In this document: in pieces, positions 10,345 through 63,389 of the stretch
Position numbering within the stretch: position 1 is the first letter of the stretch
Layout of the letters: every line of letters starts with the position of its first letter
NCBI GenBank assembly: GCA_951406725.2
Contig: OX597831.1
Span: forward strand, 65,162,001 to 65,226,000
Length of the DNA: 64,000 bases
Direction: 5' to 3'
From: Octopus vulgaris
Lineage: Eukaryota
Notes under the pieces: generated by a model
Told to the model about the DNA's origin: nothing
Databases searched by the model: none
The model's input: only the letters and a program-made list of their open reading frames with translations
Position numbers and translations under genes: made by a program

Positions 10345-11520
10345 ATATATTTGTTGTTGAATATCATCCTGGAAAGATTCGATGATCCTCAGCAGCTTTG
10401 GTGGACATCTGATTTTTTGAAGCAGGATGAAGAGGCCTTTTCTACTGACCAAGTCAAAGGCCTTTGTCAGATCAATGAAGGCCATATATAATGGTATTTT
10501 CTGCTCTCTGGACTTCTCCTGAAGTTGGCGTATGGAGAATATCATGTCAATAGTTGATCTGCTTCTTCTAAAGCCACACTGCGATTCTGGATAAATTCGA
10601 GAAGCAAGCAGTTGTAGCCTGGACAGGATTACACAGGCAAAAGTCTTTCCAACAGTGCTGAGAAGAGATATTCCACGGTAATTGTTGCAATCACCATGGT
10701 CACCTTTGCTTTTGTAAAGCGTGATGATGTTAGCATCCCACATATCCTGACGGACTGTACCCTCTTCCCAGCACAGACAGAGAAGCTCATGAAGGTGTTG
10801 AAGCAGGGCAGTGTTTTTTCTGGCTTTGATGATCCCTGAGGGTATTCCGTCTTTTCCTGGAGCCTTGCCACTGGCTAGGGAGTCGATAGCTTTGGTGAGC
10901 TCTGCTATGGACAGCAGACTAAGTTTGCACATGGCTGGCAAAATCTTGACATCCTCGATTGCAGCTTCAGTGACTGTGGTCTCCCATGAGTAGAGATCCT
11001 GGTAGGACTCCACCCATCTATCCATTTGCTTGCTTTGGTCATTGATGAAATCTCCAGTAGTTGATTTCAGAGGGGCTGACTTGGTTGCAGATGGACCGAG
11101 GGCCTTCTTCAAACCAGAATGCATCCCATGGGTGTCACCACTGTCAGCAGCTGACTGGATACTCTGACAGATTTCCTGCCAATACCTATTTGCACAGCGT
11201 CTGGCAGTCAGTTGGGTTTTACTTCTTGCCTTTCTGAGTTCTTGAGTGTTTTTGTAGAAGAATCACTCTTGTATTGCATCAGATCTGTACGCTTTGCTTC
11301 GATAACTGTTTCCAGCTTTGAGAGCCCAGCACTAAACAAAATCTGGGTTTTGCCTTTCTCTCATGCTGAAAGTATCTATTGATGTGGTATACAAAGCTTC
11401 CTGGATACAATTCCACCTACTTTCAGCAGAGGAGGATGGGCAGCTACTAAGAACAGCCTTGATAGAAACAGCAAAACGTTTCCGCAGTGTAGGGTCTGAG
11501 ATTCTGGCAGAAATGAAATA
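10345..11520 (-). mobile_element. RTE/BovB-like LINE fragment, N-terminal reverse transcriptase region
   Basis: 290-aa ORF with KAPGKDGIP, DCNNYRGISLL, ESQCGFR and FIDLTKAFD; truncated before the YADD motif, frameshifted upstream. Confidence 0.92.
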
Positions 11521-16033: not shown

Positions 16034-19000
16034 CTGCAAATAAGAAAAAAATAAAAAGTATAACAAACAATCAATGGAAATATGCAATCATAAGCACGGA
16101 AAACGGACGTTAAACGATGATGATGATGATAAAGTAAGTGTATAGAAATGAAATACATAAAAAAAAATTTTACATCAGAAAAAGCACAAATAATTCTTTA
16201 ACCCTTTTGATATTAACCCAGCTGAGACAACCTCAAGTTCTAAGATAAACTTACTACTGTTTTAAAGTGGTCTAAATTATGATCTTCCATCAAAATTTTA
16301 TGCTAAATATATGCCAGCTTAATAATTAGTTATTTTACTAAATACTTCATTATTTTAAAGATTAATTGAAACAAAGGCAGCATGTAGGAGGCACCATTCG
16401 AGCGGGATCGTTACCAGCATCGCCTTACTGGCACCTGTGCCATTGGCATGTGTAAAAAATTCGAGCGAGGTCGTTGCCAGTACCACCTGACTGGCCCCCG
16501 TGCCGGTGGCATGTAAAAGCACCTATTACACCCTCAGAGTGGTTGGCGTTAGGAAGGGCATTCAGCTGTAGAAACTCTGCCAGATCAAGACTGGAGGCTG
16601 GTGCCATCCAACCCATGCTAACATGGAAAGCGGACGTTAAACGACGATGATGATGAAAGGCAGCATATGTTAACAGAAATATGGTAACAAAAGGAATAAA
16701 TGAAAATCTAGGTGAAAAAGACATGACGACACTTACTTCAACGGTTGTTGTTAGTTGAGGTTTTATTTCTGATGGTACAGTAATTGTATATTGTTCTTTT
16801 CCAGTCAGGCCAAGGGATTCAGCTGATTCACCTGGCAAATATTGCAGAGGAATGATACCCATCCCAATAAGATTACTGCGATGAATTCGTTCAAAGCTTT
16901 CAGCTAGCACAGCACGGACACCCTAGATGTATAGATAAAAGGAGAACATTACATATTATTCAACACAGACTAACTACGTTAGTTAACATGGGAAAATGCT
17001 GCAGAAACATACATTTATATTATTCCATATTTGAACAGATTAGAAGAATGTGAAGATTCAGATGGTTGAGCATGTAATTCAATTACCTAACTAAAACAAT
17101 GTACAGTTCTATATTTAAGAGATGAATTATGTACATTATTTACATTTGACAGATATTTGTCCTCAACTTGTTTGTTGTTAGCACAACGTTTCGGCTGATA
17201 TACCCTCCTTCATCAGGTGTCTTGGGGGAAATTTTGAACCTGGGTTCTCATTCCTAAGGTATTTTTCAATGTACTTATTATTATTATTATTCAGGTCTCA
17301 GCCTGGAATCGAACTCGGAATTTTGGGGTTTGATTCCAGGCTGTGACCGGGATAATAATAATAATTACATCGAAAAATACCTTAGGAATGAGAACCCAGG
17401 TTCGAAATTTTCCCAAAACACCTGATGAAGGCCTAAGAAAGCATAAGAAATTTTCAAATGAAAGATAAATAAATATCCAATTTGATTCATTTAGGGATGG
17501 TAGGGTTAGTATGAGTTAGTAATCCATCAAAATCATTGATCTCACAACTTTCAAAAGAAAGGATAAATTAAAAGTTGGAGTGTACATTAAGCTAACAGCC
17601 AATCAAATCATCAACTACAAAAGGTGGACAGTCACCATATTCAATCTCTAACAGAGAATGTTTATAATAAATCTATTAAATTCAAAGTGGATGAGGAGAG
17701 AATTATTGATTACAATAGATAAGTTAAGATTCAGAAATTCTTATCAACAATAATAGTGACCTATGCCTTGCCATTCTCCATATGCCAGCATTGTAAAATA
17801 ATGTCATGGATTAAACATTGTCAATGGTTATGTCTGCTGTGCAGTTCATTGTGTAAAAGATCAGAGGAATAAGTATCATACTTGGAAACAAGCAAGGGTT
17901 GGGGACATGAGGGGCATCCAGCTATAGAATATTGCTTCAATTTAGTCTCATCCAACTCATGCCAGCATGGAAAAAACAGCTGTAAAAATGATCATGAAGA
18001 AGATGATGATGAGGACACTGACTGAATACTTTTGTTATACTTTCAAAAAACAAAACAAAAAAAAAACCCCCAGAGATTAACAGGTGGATTCATAATAAAC
18101 ATGGCAATTGAAGCAAAACTTGTCAACTTACCAGCATTGAAGGCCCTTTAGCTGCCCAGTCTCTGGAAGAACCAGAACCATATTCTTTTCCTGCTAATAT
18201 GATAACACTATCATTGGTTTGCTTATATTTTTCAGCTGCATCAAATACATCCATCTGAAGAAGATAAAAAAAACGTATTTTATACATAAGGTCTCATTAA
18301 AATTACAGCTAAGATTAGAAAATAATTTTTTCCTAAAAACTTATGGGGCAATCCAACTCTAGAGATAACTCTCATTTCAGTTTGAAAAGACATGTTTAAA
18401 GTGCACCAGGGTTGCTTATCTAATTCCTGAATGTGATATTATAGTGGATTTTAATCATTTGTATTTAAGGATTAAAAAAAAATACTGACATAATATACAT
18501 CCTACAAATTACATGGAATTGGGTAATGTAATTTCTGATTCAAAAATCTATGGTAGTTTGAAGACCTGCAAGGGTTTTGAATTTGGAATCTTAGAATAAA
18601 TTAAAAGAATAAATTCTTTTTTTAAATACTTTAACCCTTTAGTGTTCGCATTATTCTGCCAAAATTAATCCTTTTTTATCCACATTGTTTTGAACTAATC
18701 ATGCATTAATCTTGTAGCTATGAGATTTTGATGAGGTAGCTGTTAATTTTTAAAACTATATTGTAGGGTTGGTGTGAGAGACCAGATCTGGCCAGTTTGA
18801 ACATAAAACAGGTAGAATATTTTGGCTGGATTTGGCCAGTTTAAATGCTAAAAGGTTAAATACCAGGACTCAAAAGTTACCAAAAACCAACCACAATCAT
18901 CATCATCATCATCGTCGTTTAACGTCCGTTCTCCATGCTAGCATGGGTTGGACGGTTCGACCGGGGTTCTGGGAAGCCAGAAGGCTGCACCAGGCTCCAG

Positions 19001-31000: not shown

Positions 31001-34000
31001 TCTCTGGTCACCTGAGCAAATGTACATACATTGGGTTATTGAGTACTCTCTATCCTTATTATGTACAAGGTACTCTCTCCCTCCTCTGCCGGTCGCTCAA
31101 GATCCCTCCCTTCTATAGGGACTGGTGAACTAAACATCCTGCAATGTGGGAACTATGGAAATTCTTAACATAAAAACTGAAGTAGATTAAAAAAAAAAAA
31201 TCACAGCTATACTCACTGTTATTTTTGAATAGACTTCTTTGAACATAGCTGGAATTACATTCTTCTTTTCAACAACCTAAAAGTTTAAAATATTTCAAGA
31301 TTAAAATTCTTAGAACAAAGGTAAAGTGCTTTGAATTCAAAGATGTAAAAATTTCATTAGATTCTCACCAATTTTCAAAGTCTCATTTATCATTAGTAAC
31401 CAGTTTCCAACATCATAACTACAAACTTGCATTATCTATTTATATCAATTTCAACTTTTACTTAAGAAAGAAAATGCTCAACTAAAAATCAGTCAATTTC
31501 TAAAATTTTACAATTCTTTTTTATAACAGAAGCAATCCATACATACCCTAAATTTCAAATAATGAGATGTGAAATAAAAACAGTTGGGCATATCTTGATA
31601 AAACTGGCAAAAATAGAACACCAAAAAATAATGAAAGTTTACCTAAAGTAAATTGAAACGCCTATAAAAAGAAAGCGACTTTTATAGATTACCCTGGTAC
31701 TGATTTAAAAGTGAAGAAAGAAATTAAAAAGGGTGGAGGGATCATTAATACAATCTGTACCAGAGTGACTTTTTTATATGTATTAAACTGAGATGCTTAA
31801 TTATTACACCTTAACTATCAATTAAATAATATTCAAATTCCAAATATCTTAATGACTTTGATACAATGAACCAATTCACAACTACCATTAGAGAAATGGC
31901 ACTACTGTGGTTTTTTACATCTGCTTTTTCTATGCTGGTATGGGTCGAAGCACCATTCTACAGCCAGATGCGCTTCTGGCAATCAATCCTTATTTTATTT
32001 TCAAATAAGATATTTCTGCTGCACTCATCTTTACATGAGACCAGCATAAACTGCTGAGCTACAGGATCATCATCATCATTTAACGTCCGTTTTCCATGCT
32101 AGCATGGGTTGGATGGTTCGACCGGGGTCTGGTAAGCCATGGAGGCTGCACCAGGCTCTAGTCTGGTTTGGCAATGTTTCTACAGCTGGATGCCCTTCCT
32201 AACGCCCACCACACCGTGAGTGTAGTGGATGATTTTTATGTGCCAGGGTAGGTTGGCAAATGGCCACGATCGGTTGGTGCTTTTACGTGTCACCGACACG
32301 GACGCCATCAAGGATGTGTAGCTTAAAGGAGACACAAAACACATCACTTGCTGAAACAGTGTCAATGAGAAAACACAGAGATAAAAGCAGTCTTACATAT
32401 TAAATTTCATTTACCAGACACTGTAAATTAAATTTAATGATAAGTTCAAAGATATAATAAAGGACACACACAAGGTAGCATGCACTGGAATAGAACCCCA
32501 AACCATATGATTGTGAAGTAAACTTCATAATTACATAACCACTAAGGTGGTGAGCTGGCAGAACTGTTAGCTCACCAGGAAAAATGCTTGGCAGCATTTT
32601 GTCCATCCTTATAATCTGAGTTCAAATTTCACCAAAACTGACCTTGTCTTTCATCCTTCTGGGGTCAGTAAAGTTAAGTACCAGTTGATGTAATCAACTT
32701 AGTCCCTTCCCTAAAATTGCTGGACTTGTACCAAAATTTGAAGCCATAATTACATAAACGATTAGCAGGAGAGTAACAGTAGAGCATTTTTAGAATCTAA
32801 TGAAGTCTATAAAATATTTTTGGATTAGATATGTATTTTGCAGCATAGTATATTGTTGTGTGTTGCATTAAACGATGCAGAACAAAACTAATTGTTATTA
32901 CTTTATAAAACAACTTCTATGTTGGGTACTATTACATCAATAAAATAACAAAAAAAGGTTTTAATCACCTGGATTTCATTTCGGGTAGGCCATATGTCTT
33001 TGAGGTATATTGGTTTTCCATCAGCACTATAACCTATGAATTATTTTACAGAAGATGAGCTTCATTTAGAAATATAGTTTAATTCTTTAGTATGTAAAGT
33101 AGTTATGAAAATACTTGAAATACTGAGTCCAAAAATAAATTAGTATTCTATTATAAAACTGATTCACAAACATTGTGAAATAAGTTCACAATACAAATGA
33201 AACATCATAATTCTACAAATCAACTTAGCATTTCAACCCTCCAGGGTTCACCAAATACAATATGCATTACAATAAATATAAAAATTCTCAACAGTACCAG
33301 TATGCTGAGTCTATAAGTTACTTTATAAATTTCATTAGGTAACTATGTCTTAGTAAAACACCAGTTCAACAAAGTTATTGCAACCACTAATTCCATCTTT
33401 CAAAATCAATAATTTAAAAAATATTCATGCTGAATTCACCTTTTAAGTAAGTTTACCAATAAACTAAATGAATAAAAATAGCAGCTTAGGCTTAAATGTA
33501 GCAAGTATATGAAGTGAAAACTTCAATTACCTAATGGTTCTGTTTCAAAGTCTATGCAGATAGTTCCAGCTAAAGCATAGGCAATCACTAAGAGAGGCGA
33601 AGCTAAGAAGTTGGCTCGAGTAAGTGGGTGAACACGTCCCTCATAGTTTCTGTTTCCAGATAGCACACCGACAGCCACCAAATCACCCTGTGAAATAAGA
33701 CAATACATTTTGAACACTGAAATAATTTTACATTCACAAGACATATTTTTAGTTATGTTTTCTTTCATTTTTATGACATTTAAGAATAATACAACAATTT
33801 CCTAACTGACACTGGACAAATTTGTTAGAAAGGAGAAAGGCAAAAGCTTAGAAACCTCAGTTACAAGTAAGTGGGAAAGAGGACAAACCTTTTCAATAGC
33901 TGTAGATACTTCATCAAACAATGGGCCACTGTTTCCAATACAAGTCATACAACCATAGCCAACAATATTAAATCTGAATATGAAACACAAAGACAATATC

Positions 34001-37000
34001 TTAAATATAATAATACTCCCATTGTTACTATTTTTATATCTGGATGAATTTTTATTTGAGGAAAATTAATGTAGATTGGAAATAGTCTCTTTATGTTCAT
34101 AAAGCTTACCCTAATTCTTCTAGATAAGGTATAACACCACTTTCTTTGAGGTAATAGGTAACTACACCACTGCCAGGGGATAAGCTGGTTTTGATGTAAG
34201 GAAGTACTTTTAAACCAGCATCCACTGCCTTTTTAGCCAATAAACCTTTAAAAAAAAAAAGAGTAGATAAAGAAAAAAGTTTCATTCAGTAAATTTTACA
34301 TAAAAATAATAATAATAATATCAATTTAAAATGAAGAGAAGAAACAAAATAATTTACCAAATAATGAGTTGTAAAGTAACCATTAATTTCAACATCATGA
34401 AGGGCTAAAAATTAAATAATTTCTTAAAACACAAATATAATTAAAATTTCAAACTAACCTGCTCCTAGCATAACAGAAGGGTTGCTGGTGTTAGTACAAC
34501 TAGTTATGGCTGCCATAACAACAGAACCATGACTTAAAATTTCTTCTTTACTTTCAAACTCAAATGGAATGGTTATATCTAATTTATCAGGAGGAATCTG
34601 GAAACCCTGCAGAACAGAAATGAAAGAACTCATTAACTTCATTTAGCCTTTCGTTTTTTTTTTCTTAATTGTTAAATTAATTTAATTGTTACGCGTATCT
34701 AAAATTATTCGTTTTGTTTTTGTTTTGAGATACAAGTGTATTGTTTAAACTATTTTCCATTACTTAAGAAAAAAAAAACGAAAGGCTAAAACGAAAGCAA
34801 TGGAAAATAATTTAAACAATTAACAAACAAAATAATTCTATAATTTTATACACACGCTTTCCGAACGTAAACATAACAGTGACAGGATGTTGTCTCAGTT
34901 TTAGACACAGCAAATGATTTTAGCTAAATAGAGGCAATTGATTGGTTAAAATTCGAAAAATTAAACTTACAAATTACTATTTCCTCAAGAAAGCTAAGAG
35001 AAAAAATGTTTTATTTTGACACATTCTACCAGTATACAAAGTTTAAAAGTGTTTAGTTAACTAGAAATTGTGTTGAAAACTACCGTTCAAACCGAAAAGA
35101 TCCCTTTTATGTACAAATGACAATGGATTTGTTCAAAACTTTGGTAGCATCTTGCTGTGCCTCAATGTTTATGTTTTACATCATGAGATTCAACATAGTA
35201 AACATGTAAAGTTTAAGATTGTAAGCATTTATTTATTAACTTGGATTCTTTCTTCACCAAGGAAAGGCATACACATAGGCATAAAGATACATAGATAAAA
35301 ATGTGTGTATAGGTGTATCTCTTTCTCTCTCTCTCTCATATATGGAGAGAGAGAGAGAGGAGAAAGAGGGAGAGCAATGAATATCTACAACAAAATTCTT
35401 ATGTGGTTTACAAATAGGCTATTTTGGACGTATGACAGAGGGCTGGCAAACCAAATGGCTGCACCAGACTTCAATCTTGATCTAGCAGAGTTTCTACAGC
35501 TGGATGCCCTTCCTAACGCCAACCACTCCGAGAGTGTAGTGGGTACTTTTACGTGCCAGTCAGGCGGCACTGGCAACGACCTCGCTCGAATCTTTTACAC
35601 ATGCCATTGGCACGGATGCCAGTAAGGTGATGCTAGTAACGATCACGCTCGAATGGTGCTTTTTACATGCCACCGGCACAGAGGCCTGATAGCCGCTCTG
35701 GCAACGATCATGCTCGGATGGTGCTCTTAATACCCTACTAACACGGGGCTCGAGTGCCAGTAATGCGACGCTGGTAACGATCACGCTCGAATGGTGCCTT
35801 TTAAGTATGACTGGCACGGAAGCCAGTTAGCCGCTCTGTCAATGATCACACTCGTATGGTACTCATTGCACCCCGCTAGCATGCTATTTACATATAAGTA
35901 AATAATGAAAGGTTAAAATAGAAACAGTCTTATGTATGAAGTAATTTTATATGAGATTTACCTTGAAACCAGCTGGTGATGTCAAACAGTTCTTGAAATC
36001 TTCTTTCATATTTGTCACTAATACCTTGTCATGAGGACGCTTGGGTCCTGAACAGCACGAACTTACTGTGCTCAAATCCAATTCATAATACTGTTTAAGT
36101 AAAATAATAAAAACAAACAAAAAAATCACTAACATACATTTTCCCATACACATATGTGAAATTAATTTTGTAACAACAAATGTTTATCAAACTATAATTT
36201 TGAACTCAATATTATGTAAGCACCATAATGTAATCTAGACAAGATAATCATTCTAAGATCTTGCAGTTATGGTTAGACTAGGTTTTGCTGATAATGACTA
36301 ATAAAAATATGACAAAAGCCATTTACTGTACCACAAAAAATCATGTGCACTCTCCACTGCATTCTATATTCCACTGAATTTAATTAAAATTTCGGAGTGG
36401 TCTCCCCTATATTTTTGTCTTTTTTTGTTATGAAGAAGTCCTATACTTTTAGTTAACCTCGAGGCTTACTGTACGAAATATGCATGCATGCACTTTACTA
36501 CATGTTGTACTTCAAGTACTAGCCATTTGCCTTTACAATTCATTTAGATAATACTAGCACTATGACCTGGCAACGCCGGGTCATAGTGCTAGTGCATGCA
36601 TATACAGCTGCATGCATGTGCACATACACACACGAGTACTGTCCAAATCTCTGACCAATCACATACAGCTAGCTGGCATTCAATTGGCGTATCAAGTTTC
36701 GGGCATTTTGATTAGGTTTTGGATAGAAAATTCACAAAAAAGTCACTTCTATTGATTTTTTAATGGCTTTGCAGGGTGACTGGGGAAATGTAAAGATGTT
36801 CACAACCACTCTTGGACAGTTTTGAATGACCATAGAAAGTGCAAACCCTCTAACTGAAAAATTGTGGATTTGTATAAAGGACACACACACACAGACATTT
36901 TGCCGTTTATATATAGAGAGATGAAAGTTCTTTTCTTGGAGTCAAATATCTTTAAAACATTTCTTAAAATGGAGAAAAACACAGATGAATGTGTTCTACT

Positions 37001-47900: not shown

Positions 47901-50900
47901 ATAACAGTTTATGATTCCACCACCATTCAAACGTTGAAAGCAAAGTAACATATACTGTTGTATGTTTACAGAGTTTAGTATAGATGTTTGTAGAGAGGGA
48001 AATGCCGAGTTTGGTGAAAATAACAGCTAGCTGTTATTTTCACCAAACTAATACACATAGTCGTGACTAGTTGCCTTGTTGACCAGTAAAGCTTCCTAAC
48101 TTGGAGTCTAAGTGAACATGATAAAACAGCTGAGTTTGGTGAAGGGATTTCAAGAGAGATTTTATGTGTAAGCAATGTAGAATTGGAAGCAAAATGGACA
48201 GCAAATGTAGAGGCTTTATCAATAGAAATGATACTTTTAAAGATTGATTCCTCAGAAAGTTTTGAAGGTCATGTGATTTAAGAGCAATTTTTACTTTCTT
48301 CTTCTTCTTACAGCATTCACCCGGGGTGGGTTGAGCTGGCTTCATTCATCCTCAATGCTGCATCTCTCACAAACGCCGACCAGACCTGGCAATTTGAGGC
48401 TAACGACCACGTGATCCCTAACCACTCCTTATTCCAGCGGTGAACGCCGTAGACATGGGGGCCCAGGTTGGGTTCCAGATCAGCCTTGACTGTCATCAGC
48501 CAGGTTTTTCATTGTCCACCACATTGCTTTCGCCAACCCTGAAGGGGAGCTGGGGCAATTGCTTCATAGATGAATTCTCCTGGCTGACAATGGAGGGCAT
48601 GACCCAGCCAACACAGACATCTTGTTAGGATGACTTGTCGGAGGGAGGTGATTCTGCACTGGTGTTGCACTGAATTGTTGGAGACAAAGTGATGCCATCG
48701 GACAATTTTTACTTTCCTTTATGGTTATTTTGTAAGCATCAAAATGATGTGTAGAACTCTTAGTTAGTGGATGGTTTATAACTGTTTCCAAGTGTTGGAG
48801 GCAGTGTTGTTCTGTAGAACTGAGAGTGAATAATTTGGCAGGGTTGGGGATATAAAACAACATATCTATGAGGGTTGCATCATTCACCTACTTTTCTGCT
48901 ATAGAGAGGTCAAAGGTGAAGTAGATTTGCGGTCAAGAATAGTCAAGAGAATTTCTGCCGACTGAAGTAATGAACACACTAAGAATTTCATGACATCCTT
49001 TGCAGTTGTGGGAAGTCATTCAAGAGTGAATTCAGATACTTCTGCTCTTCAATCCACCAGTAGATGTAACTGAATGTATGATGGACTATCAGAAATATCC
49101 CAAGGCTATCTGTATGACCTGTATGAAACACCTCCAGTAGTTGATGTAATACTAACTGGTACTGGATACAGCTTTGGAGAGAAGAGATAAGGATATTTTC
49201 GGTTTGAACAGCAGTTTTTAACATAATTTCTAGTTAACTAAAAAATTTTAAACTTTGTAAACTGGTAGAATGTGTTTATAAAACATCTTTTTCTCTTGGC
49301 TTTATTGAGAAAATTCTATAGTTTGTAAGATATTTGCTGTTTTTTTTCTTCAATTTCTGCAATTTCAACTAATCAATGACATCTATTGAGTTAAAAAACA
49401 TTCTGTGCTGTATGAATATGTCCCTCGTTTAAGAAACAGATTGGGTTTATTTACATTTGTGAAGAAAAAAAGATACCCTTTCTCCCACCCCTAACCCTAA
49501 AACAGATTGAAATGCAATAGATCGATTCTAGGGTCATAATTATGGGTGACAATTTCATGACACCGCTAGAAAAAAACTGCCGTTGAAACCGAAAAGATCC
49601 GAGATAATAGTCAGTCAACTTTTTCCCAACAAACCAACTGAGATTGTTACAAATATTATGGCAAGGGATCAAAAAGAAAGCAAAACGAAAACATTTGAAC
49701 AAAAGAAAAAAAAATCAAACACCATCCAAAGAATAAGAACAACAAAGATCATATAATATACTGCGTAACAATTATAAAATTTTAGTTATAAACTTACCCC
49801 AGCCTACTACACCAAGGCCGTTCACCATAGTGGTATGAGAATCAGTCCCAACTACGGAATCAGGATACAGCATACCATTACTGCTAAAAACAACCCTTGC
49901 GAGATATTCTAAATTCACTTGATGTACAATTCCAGAACCTGGGGGTATAATCTGCATGTTCTTCAAAGCTATTGAGCCCCACTGTAAATAAAAAGTTTCA
50001 AAAGTTGGGTAGAAAAAAATGTTTAAATATTTAAAACAAACAAAAATTAGATATAGACAAATTGAATTTGTTTGAGTCTTTAAAACTGTATCAAGGGTGG
50101 TCTTCTGTAGTTAGTAATTAAAATAATGTTAGTCCTCAACCAATATCTTATTTTACTGCCTGCAACTAAGAAAATAAAAATATTTTGCGTCTAGAGCAGT
50201 GTAGTAACAGATCATTTCTGGATCTTAAATACATTTGACAGACATGAATATCATGGTACACTGATTGGGAGTGGACACGGTTTAGATCACATACAAATTC
50301 CATCTGTATCCACAAGCAAACCTGAAAAAGACACAACTCTTTTACTTGTTTCAGTCATTTGACTGTGGCCATGCTGAAGCACCGCCTTTAGTCATGCAAA
50401 TCGACCCCAGGACTTTTATCGGTCCCTTTTACCGAACCGCTAGGTCACAGGGATGTAAGTACACCACCATCGGTTGTCAAGCAATGTTGGGGTTGGGTGG
50501 GGGTGGACAAACACAGACATACACATACATATATATATACATATATAGACGGGCTTCTTTCAGTTTCTGTCTACCAAAACCAGTCACAAGGCTTTGTTGG
50601 TCAGCCCGAGGCTATAGTAGAAGACACTTGCCCAAGATGCCATGCAGTGGGACTGAACCCGGAACCATGTGGTTAGTAAGCAAGCTATTTACCACACAGC
50701 CACATCTACGCCTACAACCTAAACATTCTAATTATGTCTCTCATGGGACATAAATTATGTTGACTCTAAATATAACGAACATTTAATATAATATATTATC
50801 AATACAATAGAGCAGCAAGATGGTGGAATTGTTAACACACCAGGCAAAATACTTGGAGGCATTTTGTCCATCTTTATGTTCTGAGTTCAAATTCCACCGT

Positions 50901-53900: not shown

Positions 53901-54187
53901 GCAGATCTTGTGCATAACAGTAAAAAATGTAATTAAAAAAAAATAAAGTGTTTAAAAAAAAAATGCCTACTTCAATGATACTTTTTGAGGGTATGATGTA
54001 GACAAACAGCAAGAATATTTAAAGAAAGCTAAACTATGAATTCCATGGGTTCCATTAATATGAATAAATATGATAAATATATCTGCGAGAATGAAAGCAA
54101 ATAAAAGGAATGTATACCTTCAAGAATCGAAATCTTTCTTCATTCCTTTCAAATTCACGAATTTCATTTTGTTGGAGAGCATCTGAA
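15923..54187 (-). CDS. ACO1: Cytoplasmic aconitate hydratase / iron-regulatory protein 1, 5'-partial multi-exon gene (18 coding exons in window)
   Basis: Spliced exons total 2263 nt and stay in frame, giving AcnA/IRP motifs [93 protein letters not shown] and [10 protein letters not shown]. All introns are GT-AG. Confidence 0.97.
16384..16655 (+). mobile_element. RTE LINE 3' tail copy nested in a TTAA-type MITE relic
   Basis: Tail sequence, (GAT)n, TSD aaaggcagcat. Confidence 0.8.
16737..16922 (-). CDS. ACO1: ACO1 exon ([32 protein letters not shown]...TTTVE)
   Basis: 186 nt, ctag acceptor, gtaagt donor. Confidence 0.95.
17182..17219 (-). ncRNA. Degenerate minimal hammerhead ribozyme motif
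   Basis: CAC CUGAUGA A GG...CC GAA ACGU U GUG; stem II reduced to 2 bp. Confidence 0.45.
17206..17431. repeat. Inverted duplication with about 105-bp arms in a retroposon carrying a tRNA B-box-like head
   Basis: ccttcatcaggtgt...gcctggaatc versus gattccaggc...acacctgatgaagg. Confidence 0.85.
18132..18254 (-). CDS. ACO1: ACO1 exon ([12 protein letters not shown]...[21 protein letters not shown]), catalytic Ser region
   Basis: 123 nt, ttcag acceptor, gtaagt donor. Confidence 0.95.
18635..18855. mobile_element. piggyBac-type MITE, different family
   Basis: TTAA CCCTTTAG ... CTAAAAGG TTAA. Confidence 0.7.
18896..19785 (-). mobile_element. RTE LINE 3' end with internal about 159-bp triplication
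   Basis: [15 protein letters not shown] at the 5' end, units near 19182/19340/19499, (GAT)n tail. Confidence 0.85.
20786..21173 (+). mobile_element. Tc1-type deletion derivative
   Basis: TIR CCTCTGTGYGAAAAGTCTGGCTGCAT; transposase C-terminal remnant AVLQSWEEL...IVDCRGG. Confidence 0.75.
21496..22474 (-). mobile_element. Internally deleted mariner element
   Basis: About 30-bp TIRs (CGAGGTGGTATCAAAA...), TA flanks, remnants [13 protein letters not shown] and QGDYFEGD. Confidence 0.8.
21687..21908. mobile_element. piggyBac-type MITE nested in the mariner
   Basis: TTAA on both sides, TIR CCCTTTCATTAC. Confidence 0.85.
22595..23075 (-). mobile_element. RTE LINE 3' tail copy
   Basis: Shared tail sequence and (GAT)n. 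Confidence 0.8.
23119..23266 (-). CDS. ACO1: ACO1 exon ([29 protein letters not shown]...HIPTGAT)
   Basis: 148 nt, ttctag acceptor, gtgagt donor. Confidence 0.95.
23790..24737. repeat. Long inverted repeat, about 195-bp arms (23790-23984, 24543-24737)
   Basis: Arms are reverse complements with scattered mismatches. Confidence 0.9.
24960..25167. repeat. 69-bp minisatellite, about three copies
   Basis: atcagyaaaggcatgctg at 25008, 25077 and 25146. Confidence 0.8.
26067..26298 (-). mobile_element. SINE family B
   Basis: Full length, gaaatacct duplicated at flanks. Confidence 0.85.
26755..27092 (-). mobile_element. Non-autonomous Helitron-like element, second family
   Basis: TC start, hairpin plus CTAG end; homologous to 36554-36921. 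Confidence 0.7.
27233..27375 (-). CDS. ACO1: ACO1 exon (TKELP...[28 protein letters not shown])
   Basis: 143 nt, ttccag acceptor, AA|gtaggt donor (phase 2, fits next exon). Confidence 0.93.
27547..27915 (+). mobile_element. SINE family A
   Basis: Same consensus, slightly 5'-truncated. Confidence 0.85.
28515..28619 (-). CDS. ACO1: ACO1 exon ([35 protein letters not shown])
   Basis: 105 nt, ttttag acceptor, gtacgt donor. Confidence 0.94.
28929..29409. mobile_element. TA-flanked Tc1/mariner/pogo-type MITE
   Basis: TA CCGTAAATCCACGAG ... CTCGAGGATTTACAG TA. Confidence 0.7.
30396..30629 (+). mobile_element. tRNA-derived SINE family B (MetaSINE-like central domain)
   Basis: B box GAGTTCAAATTCC, gcctttcatcctttcggggtcgataaa domain, 16-bp TSD tatatttactacccct. 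Confidence 0.85.
31217..31276 (-). CDS. ACO1: ACO1 exon ([20 protein letters not shown])
   Basis: 60 nt, ttttag acceptor, gtgagt donor. Confidence 0.92.
32067..32305 (-). mobile_element. RTE LINE 3' tail copy
   Basis: Shared tail sequence and (GAT)n. Confidence 0.75.
32545..32745 (+). mobile_element. Older SINE family B relative
   Basis: Diverged head and central domain, different tail. Confidence 0.7.
32969..33033 (-). CDS. ACO1: ACO1 exon ([22 protein letters not shown])
   Basis: 65 nt, catag acceptor, gtgatt donor, LKDIWP motif. Confidence 0.93.
33531..33687 (-). CDS. ACO1: ACO1 exon ([31 protein letters not shown]...DFETEPL)
   Basis: 157 nt, cacag acceptor, gtaatt donor. Confidence 0.95.
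33889..33973 (-). CDS. ACO1: ACO1 exon ([28 protein letters not shown]), second and third Fe-S Cys
   Basis: 85 nt, ttcag acceptor, gtttgt donor. Confidence 0.95.
34110..34245 (-). CDS. ACO1: ACO1 exon ([46 protein letters not shown])
   Basis: 136 nt, poly-T plus aag acceptor, gtaagc donor. Confidence 0.95.
34459..34606 (-). CDS. ACO1: ACO1 exon (GFQIPP...[24 protein letters not shown]), first Fe-S Cys
   Basis: 148 nt, ctgcag acceptor, gttagt donor. Confidence 0.95.
34930..35103. mobile_element. Diverged partial relative of the MITE (one end)
   Basis: Ends in ccgttcaaaccgaaaagatcc with the same subterminal sequence. Confidence 0.6.
35455..35880 (-). mobile_element. RTE LINE 3' tail copy with internal tandem units
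   Basis: Repeated aacgatcacgctcgaatggtgc units. Confidence 0.8.
35962..36090 (-). CDS. ACO1: ACO1 exon ([23 protein letters not shown]...PAGFK)
   Basis: 129 nt, cag acceptor, gtaaat donor, SGPKRP motif. Confidence 0.93.
36554..36921 (-). mobile_element. Non-autonomous Helitron-like element, second family
   Basis: Homologous to 26755-27092. Confidence 0.7.
37413..37620 (+). mobile_element. RTE LINE 3' tail copy
   Basis: Shared tail sequence and (GAT)n. Confidence 0.8.
37640..38718 (+). mobile_element. Degenerate mariner transposon (transposase pseudogene)
   Basis: Remnants [28 protein letters not shown] and [15 protein letters not shown] with stops and frameshifts. Confidence 0.85.
38837..38937 (-). 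CDS. ACO1: ACO1 exon ([34 protein letters not shown])
   Basis: 101 nt, ttttag acceptor, gtaagt donor, frame continuous with neighbours. Confidence 0.92.
39171..39548 (-). mobile_element. SINE family A
   Basis: Same consensus. Confidence 0.85.
40458..40629 (-). CDS. ACO1: ACO1 exon ([18 protein letters not shown]...[14 protein letters not shown]...YLQQT)
   Basis: 172 nt, ctag acceptor, gtaaga donor. Confidence 0.95.
41574..41788 (-). mobile_element. SINE family B
   Basis: TSD gcaccccatcactacc. Confidence 0.85.
42160..42660 (+). mobile_element. CR1-clade LINE 3' fragment
   Basis: LPYSERL...RGHVYKV...[21 protein letters not shown]...FK, typical CR1 ORF2 C-terminus. Confidence 0.85.
43456..43595 (-). 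CDS. ACO1: ACO1 exon ([26 protein letters not shown]...DVVLTITK)
   Basis: 140 nt, tttag acceptor, gtaatt donor. Confidence 0.95.
44065..44420 (+). mobile_element. SINE family A, diverged
   Basis: Same consensus. Confidence 0.8.
44961..45320. repeat. AT-rich palindrome, about 165-bp arms and 25-bp spacer
   Basis: aatatgaattagagataaaaccactatta... versus ...taatagtggttttatctctaattcatatt. Confidence 0.9.
45467..45879 (+). mobile_element. SINE family A
   Basis: Full-length consensus. Confidence 0.85.
45879..46002. repeat. 124-bp hairpin, probable tiny MITE
   Basis: About 54-bp imperfect arms tatacaagaatg.../...cattcttgtata, TA ends. Confidence 0.8.
46510..46922 (+). mobile_element. SINE family A
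   Basis: Full-length consensus. Confidence 0.85.
48296..48625 (-). mobile_element. 3' end of an RTE-clade LINE with (GAA)n tail
   Basis: Homologous to 14827-15075. Confidence 0.75.
48640..49180 (-). mobile_element. Possible highly degenerate Gypsy integrase relic
   Basis: [10 protein letters not shown]...SYIYWW resembles the H2C2 zinc-binding region; weak. Confidence 0.3.
49191..49600. mobile_element. Same MITE family, opposite orientation
   Basis: Same TIRs, gagataa duplicated at flanks, internal (CCCTAA)2. Confidence 0.85.
49798..49981 (-). CDS. ACO1: ACO1 exon ([27 protein letters not shown]...[15 protein letters not shown])
   Basis: 184 nt, tttacag acceptor, gtaagt donor. Confidence 0.95.
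50336..50714 (-). mobile_element. SINE family A
   Basis: Same consensus. Confidence 0.85.
51326..52109 (-). mobile_element. Two tandem SINE family A copies (51326-51724, 51735-52109)
   Basis: Head-to-tail copies of the consensus. Confidence 0.85.
52769..52803 (-). ncRNA. Minimal type I hammerhead ribozyme motif in a Penelope-like repeat fragment (about 52695-52825)
   Basis: GUUU CUGACGA A GAGC-UCU-GCUC GAA ACGU U AAAC: core boxes, 4-bp stem I, 4-bp stem II, palindromic stem III. Confidence 0.65.
53263..53668. mobile_element. Same MITE family, nested in an older SINE
   Basis: TIRs, TSD caaaatgt/caaaatgc; the SINE sequence resumes after it. Confidence 0.85.
54118..54187 (-). CDS. ACO1: ACO1 exon ([23 protein letters not shown])
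   Basis: 70 nt, ttttag acceptor, AAG|gtatac donor, aligns to IRP1 ADSLQKNQDLEFERNRERFEFLK. Confidence 0.92.
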
Positions 54188-59825: not shown

Positions 59826-60864
59826 ATTACTATTGTAATACAACTATTCAACTCAGGTCAGGGTCCTCAGAAACAATAAAAATAGAAATGATGACAGAGT
59901 GAACAGATACGAAGTGATAACTAAACTTGTATATTCAAAAACAAAAATCACTTCCTTTTTTTTTTTTAGTTGAAGTATAATCCTAATTACATTATCTTGA
60001 AAATAAGATGGGATGGTCATGGCTGAAATGCTCTGATTACAGGCCTGCTCAATAAGGACAAATCTGGAGTTAAATAACATCAGCCATTTTATGCAATATA
60101 TTGATATATTCTTTTTATTGCCTGTAGATAAGAAAAAAAGTCCTCTCAAAAAACAAAGCAACAACCTAAAACCTCAGGAGACAATCTTGATTTCGCTAAA
60201 GCTCACTACTATTGTAATATAACCATTCAACTCAGGTCAGTGTCCTCAGAAACACAATAAAAATAGAAATGATGACAGAGTGAACAGATACGAAGTGATA
60301 ACTAAACTTGTATATTCAAAAACAAAAATCACTTCCTTTTTTTTTTTAGTTGAAGTATAATCCTAATTACATTATCTTGAAAATAAGATGGGATGGTCAT
60401 GGCTGAAATGCTCTGATTACAGGCCTGCTCAATAAGGACAAATCATTCAAAAACAAAAATCACTTCCTTTTTTTTTTAGTTGAAGTATAATCCTAATTAC
60501 ATTATCTTGAAAATAAGATGGGATGGTCATGGCTGAAATGCTCTGATTACAGGCCTGCTCAATAAGGACAAATCTGGAGTTAAATAACATCAGCCATTTT
60601 ATGCAATATATTGATATATTCTTTTTATTGCCTGTAGATAAGAAAAAAAGTCCTCTCAAAAAACAAAGCAACAACCTAAAACCTCAGGAGACAATCTTGA
60701 TTTCGCTAAAGCTCACTACTATTGTAATATAACCATTCAACTCAGGTCAGTGTCCTCAGAAACACAATAAAAATAGAAATGATGACAGAGTGAACAGATA
60801 CGAAGTGATAACTAAACTTGTATATTCAAAAACAAAAATCACTTCCTTTTTTTTTTTTAGTTGA
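59826..60864. repeat. Near-identical tandem duplication, about 381-bp unit with nested about 129-bp repeat
   Basis: aatagaaatgatgacagagtgaac at 59881, 60262 and 60772. Confidence 0.9.
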
Positions 60865-61616: not shown

Positions 61617-62043
61617 CAAAAGCACCATCCGAACGTGGCCGTTGCCAGCGCCGCCTTGACAGGCTTCTGTGCCGGTGGCACATAAAAAGCACCATCCGAA
61701 CGTGGCCGATGCCAGCCCCGCCTCGACTGGCCTCTGTGCCGGTGGCACATAAAAAGCACCATCCGAACGTGGCCGATGCCAGCACCGCCTCGACTGGCTT
61801 CTGTGCCGGTGGCACATAAAAAGCACCAACCGATCGTGGCCGATGCCAGACCCCCCTGGCACCTGTGCAGGTGGCACGTAAAAAGCACCCACTACACTCG
61901 CGGAGTGGTTGGCGTTAGGAAGGGCATCCAGCTGTGGAAGCACTGCCAGATCAGACTGGAGCCTGGTGCAGCCCCTGGCTTCCCAGACCTCGGTCGAACC
62001 GTCCAACCCGTGCTAGCGCGGAAAACGGACGTTGATGATGATG
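61617..62043 (+). mobile_element. RTE LINE 3' tail copy with 67-bp tandem array
   Basis: agcacc anchors at 61621, 61688, 61755, 61822 and 61884. Confidence 0.85.
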
Positions 62044-62984
62044 AATCTCTTCTACACGCAATGTAATATGTTTCAGCTAAGCAGCTTATATGAAAATACA
62101 GTATCATATATGAAAATTTTATGTGAGGGAGAGAGGTTTGGCACAAAAATCTTGCAGCAACAATATCAGCAAATAGTAGTAGAGAAAGACATATTAAAAG
62201 GAATGAATTAAAAACATTTTTGAAGACTACTAATTAAAAATGCATATATTAAGTCAGTGTGTAACAAAACATGAGGTCAACTTTGATTGAGCAGACCTAC
62301 GACTAATGGCATTCCAGCTGTGACCATCCTGTCTATAAGGGTTACTGAGGACTACATTATTCAATGTGCCCTTCCTGTTTAAGACAATAGGTGTGATTTG
62401 AGGGAAAATTTGGCTGTTATTTCTAGCAAGTAAACCAGCTGTAAAGAGGTTCCCTCATAGGCTCAACAACAGCAAAATATTACTGCAAAGGTTATTTTTT
62501 AACCTTCTAATCAATGTAATTAAACAATATCAATAATTTATAACTTTATTATCGTTATAATGTACAAATTAAGAACAAAAATACCCAATGTTTATATGAT
62601 GCTATTTTATCAAGAATTTCAGACTTGAATCTAGTCCAAGATTTCAGTATTCAATAGTCAAAGAGCTTCTTCACTGATCTCAGAGGTACATGCATTCTTG
62701 CCATAGATAATGAACAGTTACAGTTTCATTGTGTGTGGTTTATTCCAAGAACACTTTTACATCTAGATTAACTCTCTGCTTAACTTGTAGCCATTTGCAA
62801 CAAAATAAAATAATAGGTTTAAATACTTTGAATACGTGACAACATAACTCTAGATCCATATTGAAAAACCTACAAAAGTCTAGATTTAACAATGTTACTA
62901 ACACAACAGCACAAACTATTACTAGCAGCAAGACTGTAAGATGTTTATGTTGGACAGGTACTATTATGGAACCAACTGTCTTAC

Positions 62985-63077
62985 CCATTAGAATAGTGGT
63001 AGACAGTCTCCTGACTTGAGCCACTGCTGCCACAGCTGGTTTTGCCACCGCCTGGGTTTGGGGAATACCATGTAATG
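62985..63077 (-). CDS. ACO1: Putative ACO1 cassette exon encoding an IRP2-like insert (xITWYSPNPGGGKTSCGSSGSSQETVYHYSNG)
   Basis: Acceptor tatttcattgcag, donor GG|gtaaga, 93 nt, phase 2/2 matching the phase-2 start of the exon at 54187. PNPGGG falls at the same offset as in the IRP2 insert. Confidence 0.75.
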
Positions 63078-63389
63078 CTGCAATGAAATAACATGCAACA
63101 GGAATAGGATGGTGAAGCCCATCAAAGAAAAATAAATAAAGATAAAGGATGCATAAGTCTGAAATAAAACAATATTCTTTTGACAGAACTGTAAAAAAAA
63201 ATAACTGACAACCTAAGAAGAAAAAAAGCAGAAAAAGTCAACAGAAGAAAAAAATACTTGAAGTTTTACATGTATTGAAGTATATAGAAATTCTAATACA
63301 GTAATCCCTCACCCATCGCTGGTGTTACGTTCCAAAATAGGTGAAAATCCACGAAGTACTGTACTTTTTTTTAAAACTAATTTTTATAA

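Follow-up and report, generated by a model that had tools for sequence, protein, structure and literature searches.

An apparent homologue of the vertebrate IRP2 insert is a probable cassette exon in the octopus IRP1/aconitase gene

Introduction

The vertebrate iron regulatory protein IRP2 (IREB2) carries a 73-residue insert that has been described as unique to IRP2 and as unclear in function (PMC4056636, PMC2854138, PMC2267205). Its role as a sensor of iron or heme is contested, and it is needed for the tumour-promoting effect of IRP2 in xenografts (PMC2854138). Heme binding to residue C201 of IRP2 has been proposed (PMC2267205), and a CDK1 site, Ser157, has been reported inside the insert (PMC3048577). 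Outside the vertebrates, a cloned complementary DNA (cDNA) of the ark clam encodes a protein of 942 amino acids (aa), SbIRP-1, with an extra segment, Ser138–Gly189, that was called absent in vertebrate IRP1s (PMC8947174). We describe here a 93-nucleotide (nt) exon in the cytosolic aconitase/IRP1-type gene of Octopus vulgaris, contained in a stretch of 64,000 nt (‘the window’; contig OX597831.1, G000:C18:65162001-65226000), which a preliminary description made from the sequence alone had proposed to be homologous to the IRP2 insert.

The IRP literature compared comprised PMC3048577, PMC2267205, PMC8947174, PMC2854138, PMC4112806, PMC4056636, PMC12896564, PMC4184891 and PMC7034838. No report of homology of the insert, of its splicing, or of a partition of splice forms between IRP1 and IRP2 was found in a search that left most subscription journals, including the older crayfish, tick and lamprey papers, outside its reach; the same search found no paper mentioning the PNPGGG motif discussed below. 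The ark clam paper draws no link to the IRP2 insert in the text compared, where the strings ‘isoform’ and ‘splic’ occur zero times (PMC8947174).

Results

The exon occupies window positions 62985 to 63077 on the minus strand, between an acceptor (...ttcattgcag|C; with its pyrimidine tract, 63078–63097) and a donor (GG|gtaaga; the intronic gtaaga at 62979–62984). Read in the phase-2 frame, after one split base, it gives ITWYSPNPGGGKTSCGSSGSSQETVYHYSN and contributes 31 aa to the protein, S-ITWYS-PNPGGG-KTSCGSSGSSQETVYHYSN-G. The exon upstream of it falls beyond the window, at G000:C18:65234391-65234254, and ends in ...DVSR-AG|gt; the introns on both sides of the 93-nt exon are in phase 2, and the joins that include and that skip it each leave the frame open. 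A second frame of the exon (LHGIPQ...) is likewise free of stops and is incompatible with the flanking intron phases. Along the coding strand of the 18-kb pair of introns, a phase-2 PNPGGG follows only one of 1018 AG dinucleotides, and the hexapeptide would be expected by composition 3e-5 times anywhere on that strand.

Transcript contigs were examined in four of 24 listed runs (X4, X8, X9 and X11, from four studies and three coded organisms); that these are RNA is a guess, as none of the listed runs is on record as RNA and 14 were guessed to be so. Each of the four runs yielded a single contig over the exon (aligned at 62985–63079, the last two bases being common to the end of the upstream exon) with zero cover of the introns, and the loose ends of the contig were identical to the upstream exon and to the downstream exon that begins SDALQQN (54118–54187, minus strand) in all four. 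The exon is thus spliced to both of its neighbours in octopus, its donor is used in every run examined, and no base differences were found within it among the four runs. That it is a real exon is virtually certain. Exact splicing in the four runs bears out the preliminary description as to the 93-nt exon, its splice sites and its open phase-2 frame. The statement that neither exon nor intron encodes a CPFH motif also held, CP-x-H occurring in neither intron on the coding strand. Contrary to what had been supposed, databases do not leave the exon ‘hidden’: it is part of RefSeq models for O. bimaculoides and for O. sinensis.

The contig over the exon is 152 nt long in all four runs. In a simulated sequence graph with k=31 (chosen to match the 31-letter words behind the contigs) this length results when inclusion and skipping coexist, while inclusion alone gives 654 nt and unspliced flanks at all three exons give 95 nt. 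Unspliced flanks at the two neighbouring exons alone also predict 152 nt, provided that the cassette's own flanks are absent, and for this reason the skip form is inferred from the contigs rather than read in them. Isoform ratios are beyond what such contigs can give. The junction evidence consists of loose ends, and no joint table spans the intron. O. bimaculoides and O. sinensis each have RefSeq isoforms of 931 and 928 aa (X1 and X2) and of 900 aa (X3), the 931- and 900-aa isoforms differing by exactly the 31 residues of the exon. An O. vulgaris database model is the skip form, which brings to three the Octopus species with a modelled short form. We conclude that the exon is very probably alternatively spliced in octopus, likely as a cassette.

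Alignment places the octopus insert at the same site as that of IRP2. Human IRP2 (6VCD) aligns with the octopus protein in register at the 5′ motif (the Ser-PNPGGG codons, 63044–63064, minus strand), and with a hemichordate protein across both this motif and a downstream CPFH motif whose cysteine is residue 201; the insert is absent from human and rabbit IRP1. As in IRP2, the octopus insert follows directly on DHSxQxD and its PNPGGG stands at an offset of 16 residues, while the CPFH of IRP2 (with Cys201) and its several cysteines have no counterpart in it. The octopus insert forms an exon of its own with phase 2/2, and the IRP2 insert is reported to be a separate exon (PMC3048577), intron positions having been read in octopus only.

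A hidden Markov model (HMM) built from 19 invertebrate inserts without their flanks scored the octopus insert at 22.4 bits, that of bat IRP2 at 14.4, shrimp at 20.7, barnacle at 21.6 and scorpion at 34.2, in each case with none of 1000 shuffles scoring as high. The lamprey insert has CPFHLQP in common with IRP2 and is without PNPGGG. In a tree computed with the insert removed, IRP2 and lamprey form a group with SH-aLRT support of 94, and octopus falls with the molluscs (92), nested among their IRP1-type proteins; this was a quick search without bootstrap, in which the insert was cut out by anchors and some divergent rows may retain it. From motifs, spacing and profile scores, the octopus exon is very likely a homologue of the vertebrate 73-aa insert, and the joint claim of a real exon, alternatively spliced in octopus and homologous to the IRP2 insert, is highly probable.

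Two protein searches centred on the insert yielded 22 out of 764 candidates and 33 out of 742, to which cluster look-ups added isoforms, and 65 named species were tabulated (63 with IRP1-type proteins and two bats with IRP2). Records without a species name, hybrids, short fragments and divergent copepod and nematomorph proteins were left out of the table. The insert form is present in 62 of the 65 species, the skip form in 33 and both in 30; because the sample was found through the insert, these counts give no prevalence. Sixty species other than those with IRP2 carry the insert in IRP1-type proteins, and they comprise molluscs, chelicerates, crustaceans, echinoderms, hemichordates, amphioxus and lampreys. 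The 30 species with both forms belong to five phyla (two octopuses, four gastropods, nine bivalves, five chelicerates, four crustaceans, three starfish, one amphioxus and two lampreys). Insects, nematodes and annelids contributed no insert-bearing protein, nor did squid, tunicates, cnidarians or sponges, in searches that were word-limited and whose silence is not evidence of absence. In the literature, an earthworm cDNA (890 aa) and a sponge alignment (902 columns) would be short forms, judging from length. Among 150 cluster representatives, which are not usable for dating the exon, 43 have both anchors, and of these 40 have no insert, two are one residue short and one has an IRP2 insert.

The inserts of the tabulated species range from 23 to 440 aa, with fixed ends and a middle that cannot be aligned. 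At the 3′ end, 60 of the 62 insert-bearing species have CPFH or CPMH, and the CPFH cysteine stands 20 residues before an E-F-x-R-N anchor in all 58 that could be measured, bat IRP2 included; a C-x(1,2)-C pair lies within 8–15 residues upstream of CPFH, often at exactly 11, in 33 of 59 non-IRP2 species. At the 5′ end, a PNPGGG-type motif is found in 54 of the 62. The full PNPGGG begins 16 residues after DHS in 33 of 45 cases, octopus and IRP2 among them, and is preceded by Ser or Thr in 40 of the 45 non-IRP2 species having the motif. The IRP1-type core motifs are kept in all 59 non-IRP2 long forms checked. Between isoforms, the residues at the junction change as phase-2 split codons predict (R/S in starfish, N/K in lamprey).

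Some crustaceans and sea slugs have much expanded inserts (P0108 and P0113–P0118 in decapods and krill, P0106 and P0109 in sea slugs), grown to 250–440 low-complexity residues with CPFH kept at the 3′ end; in Penaeus and Panulirus short forms exist alongside them. A further group of divergent IRP-like proteins (P0129, P0144 and P0133; P0211 from Lepeophtheirus; P0165 from Gordionus) has a CPFH tail and altered active-site motifs and is without GSSRDW, and these are possible independent IRP2-like copies outside the vertebrates.

Among the 62 insert-bearing species CPFH is missing only in the two Octopus species. The octopus exon is a shortened member of this family of inserts, without the CxxC/CPFH half seen in most other animals. 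Past the donor, the octopus intron reads G*DSWFHNSTCPT* in the frame of the exon, and a stretch at 62956–62935 (minus strand), noticed post hoc, has Cys-Pro codons in the exon frame and His-x-x-x-Thr after a shift of 2 nt. A CPFHxxxT tail is found in 27 of 27 other molluscs, and the octopus exon read through to this point would encode ∼50 aa, as compared with 51 in abalone and 48 in oyster. This stretch may be the decayed remnant of a CPFH tail, left behind by a newer donor.

The gene has 22 coding blocks, mapped against an O. sinensis protein, of which 19 lie in the window (15923–63077, minus strand) and three upstream of it. They include exons encoding DSHTTM (49798–49981), the first cluster cysteine (SCTNTSN; 34459–34606), the second and third cluster cysteines (33889–33973) and GSSRDW (18132–18254), all on the minus strand. 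The three cysteines of the 4Fe-4S cluster and the IRP1-type active-site motifs are present. The best match in the PDB over the whole length is human IRP1 (1423 bits), with IRP2 at 1203 bits, and mitochondrial aconitase is likewise more distant than IRP1. Where the octopus protein has DSHTTM and other IRP1-type motifs, bat IRP2 has GNTGP, GNKNFEGRLCD, EKIHKDHL and DSHITM, and the degenerate aconitase site of bat and human IRP2 (GNTxP, GNKNFEGRLCD, EKIHKDHL) is not found in octopus. Nor does the insert appear to be constant in octopus, as would be expected of an IRP2 protein: short isoforms occur in databases and are suggested by the contigs described above. By these motifs and scores the octopus gene belongs to IRP1/ACO1 rather than to IRP2. 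The preliminary description had called it IRP1-like for its three cysteines and GSSRDW; the assignment stands on the other motifs and the bit scores, and those two features do not discriminate, since bat IRP2 carries both and human IRP2 retains the cysteines.

A search of the genome with the PF00330 profile found two loci, this gene and that of the mitochondrial aconitase, which lies on the same contig (G000:C18:33472098-33487584, plus strand). With bat IRP2 as the query, all 14 genome matches fell inside this gene (a strict search, so that the count is a floor). Only one IRP locus was found in the octopus genome, and no separate IRP2. A profile search for the iron-responsive element (IRE) gave one match in the genome, at 29.9 bits and below the Rfam cut-off of 34 (L014:1501-1538, G000:C12:53094508-53094545), and no ferritin frame was recognised by eye within 1.5 kb of this hairpin.

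Several other features of the locus may be recorded. TGCATG hexamers (RBFOX-type) stand 20 nt upstream of the exon, within the acceptor region (63097–63092), and 291 nt downstream of it (62694–62689), both on the minus strand; none lies within 300 nt of six other exons checked, the background is 0.4 per kb, and the window as a whole shows no enrichment (46 found versus 44 expected). These two copies are a weak lead that hints at RBFOX-type control. Upstream of the window, proteins P0012 and P0016 begin differently; this pair of N-termini is present in both Octopus species and suggests that the first exon is alternative. A 1482-aa O. vulgaris model (P0008) fuses the aconitase to pyruvate kinase by way of a frame at window 6013–5798 (minus strand) and is probably an annotation fusion with the neighbouring gene. 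An open frame at 11262–10255 (minus strand) resembles a fragment of a LINE reverse transcriptase. The introns are filled with many dispersed short repeats, and tandem arrays lie at 60314–60574 and 61618–61889.

Discussion

We propose that the octopus exon belongs to a pan-bilaterian cassette encoding a Cys3His heme or metal sensor and a phosphorylation or docking motif beside the Fe-S cluster loop. Invertebrates and lampreys would switch a single gene between two modes of IRP action through regulated splicing, jawed vertebrates would have frozen the two modes as IRP1 and IRP2, and octopus and lamprey would have kept different halves of the loop. We give this full reading a probability of about 0.45.

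As to origin, the bilaterian ancestor would have had a single IRP1-type gene carrying the cassette; after the vertebrate duplication IRP1 would have lost the exon and IRP2 fixed it, with lamprey retaining both forms. The simplest history would be one cassette of ancestral origin that jawed-vertebrate IRP1 lost and IRP2 fixed. As the exon is found again in animals as far apart as clams, spiders, amphioxus and lamprey, it is likely that two ancient splice forms were divided between two genes to give the IRP1 and IRP2 of vertebrates. The matching end motifs and their spacing across Bilateria and lamprey agree with the suggestion of the preliminary description that the exon predates the vertebrate duplication, and its proposal of alternative splicing gained support from the isoform pairs of 30 species and from the 152-nt contigs. 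Its term ‘IRP2-like isoform’ is apt for the loop only, the included form keeping the IRP1-type active-site motifs checked; the term is further limited to the loop because the insert is reported to be dispensable for IRP2's iron-dependent degradation (PMC3048577).

As to function, the insert is predicted to form a loop that is flexible and exposed at the surface; in the alignment, the insertion point lies ∼3 residues ahead of the position of human IRP1 Ser138. Ser138 is near the cluster, which its phosphorylation destabilises (PMC3048577, PMC4184891). One gene could in this way produce both a plain aconitase/IRP1 protein and one that bears the loop and is more open to regulation. The ancestral loop may have consisted of two separable modules that were lost separately: a 3′ module, C-x(1,2)-C...CPFH, that could supply a Cys3His set and act as a heme, metal or redox sensor, and a 5′ module, [S/T]-PNPGGG, that could be a site of proline-directed phosphorylation or docking. 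Either might weaken the nearby 4Fe-4S cluster and push the included form towards an RNA-binding or turnover-prone state. The heme model cannot apply to the octopus exon because this has one cysteine and no CPFH; since octopus has the 5′ module only, phosphorylation or docking, rather than heme, would tune the long form there, while lamprey keeps the 3′ module only. The view that the cluster or the protein becomes more responsive in this manner when the exon is included is a tentative proposal, which we hold to be somewhat less probable than not. A query of the ESM Atlas returned generic aconitase fragments only.

Several observations weigh against the reading proposed here. Octopus has Ala at the position of Ser138, as has been reported for invertebrates (PMC4184891), and IRP2 has Ala, not Ser or Thr, before its PNPGGG. 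The octopus insert has a single cysteine and lacks CPFH. The mammalian insert has been reported to lack structure and not to be required for iron-dependent degradation, and it was seen to bind heme only in a cleaved form (PMC3048577, PMC2267205). The lamprey insert scores only 6.1 bits with the insert HMM, with 10 of 1000 shuffles as high, and the tree holds no jawed-vertebrate IRP1. With regard to splicing, no skip-junction read or contig was seen directly in the four runs, unspliced flanks at the two neighbouring exons could also account for the 152-nt contigs, and the RefSeq isoforms are predictions, taken here as modelled.

The main rival explanation accepts that the octopus exon is homologous and alternatively spliced and holds that it is a quiet remnant, its sensor half lost with the adoption of a nearer donor and its loop merely tolerated. 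The restriction of CPFH loss to the two Octopus species fits this account, as do the possible decayed Cys-Pro...His-x-x-x-Thr tail just 3′ of the donor and the unchanged iron-dependent degradation of IRP2 from which the insert has been deleted (PMC3048577, PMC2267205). Against it, O. bimaculoides and O. sinensis have the same 31 residues, while their whole proteins are 96–97% identical, the four runs show no base differences within the exon, and S-PNPGGG is intact at the ancestral spacing; the conservation is modest evidence, coming from a small sample of closely related species. We regard this explanation as unlikely, and as the strongest of the alternatives.

Considerably less probable is that the loop is mainly a degradation or cleavage tag, which would make the included isoform a short-lived equivalent of IRP2. 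Older models of an ‘iron-dependent degradation domain’ and the protease sensitivity of the insert (PMC2267205) are in its favour, as is the near invariance of CPFH, the site of Cys201. Several laboratories found the insert dispensable, FBXL5 and C-terminal sequences driving degradation (PMC3048577, PMC2267205); the 59 included invertebrate forms checked all have IRP1-type core motifs, and octopus lacks the CPFH altogether.

We consider it improbable that the exon is constitutive in octopus, with the short database isoforms reflecting prediction artefacts or splicing noise. Such a view could draw on the want of a directly observed skip junction and on contigs that give no isoform ratios. The contigs break exactly at the position that a skip path predicts in all four runs, and short forms are modelled in the three Octopus species and in 33 of the 65 species tabulated. 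The bivalve long form of 942 aa has been cloned (PMC8947174), and a short form in a different species is inferred from cysteine numbering (PMC12896564). Independent origins of the inserts at an insertion-tolerant loop, with the PNPGGG likeness to IRP2 a convergence, are very improbable: the unalignable middles of 23 to 440 aa and the failure of word-limited searches to retrieve an insert from insects, nematodes or annelids would suit them, whereas two motifs at fixed anchor distances are common to protostomes, deuterostomes and IRP2, and the junction residues of starfish and lamprey shift as a phase-2 split codon predicts.

If this insert is an optional exon of ancient date, it predates IRP2, and IRP1 has lost it. 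Its conservation across Bilateria would then point to the residues that matter, namely [S/T]-PNPGGG, C-x(1,2)-C and CPFH. Natural isoform pairs, proteins identical but for the loop, are on offer from oyster, amphioxus and starfish, which have both motifs, from lamprey, which has CPFH only, and from octopus, which has PNPGGG only; in them one could measure how the loop affects aconitase activity, the stability of the cluster, binding to IREs and turnover, a purpose for which IRP2 itself is unsuitable. Published studies of invertebrate IRP1 may mix two isoforms; those of octopus, long and short, already stand in RefSeq, unremarked.

The closest described counterpart of the octopus exon is the insert of IRP2 (‘73d’, the iron-dependent degradation domain), with which it shares the insertion point and the offset of PNPGGG and which is likewise encoded on its own exon (PMC3048577). 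In most invertebrates the likeness extends to CPFH (human C201–H204), which stands at an equal distance from the anchor. The octopus version differs from the IRP2 insert in being only 31 aa long, with one cysteine and no CPFH, and in being, as far as sequence comparison can tell, optional in a host protein with IRP1-type active-site motifs; the IRP2 insert is present in all three bat database proteins tabulated, in a host without aconitase activity. With IRP1/ACO1 (human 2B3X, rabbit 3SN2) the octopus skip form is collinear at the insertion site; the mammalian proteins have no insert there, and the octopus gene can add one.

For the proposed history, the nearest parallel is HBS1/SKI7, in which ancestral splice forms were reportedly partitioned between gene duplicates. 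In a partition of that type one ancestral gene has two isoforms and each duplicate fixes one of them. The IRP case differs in that the active site of IRP2 has changed too, and for that reason splicing can explain only the loop of IRP2.
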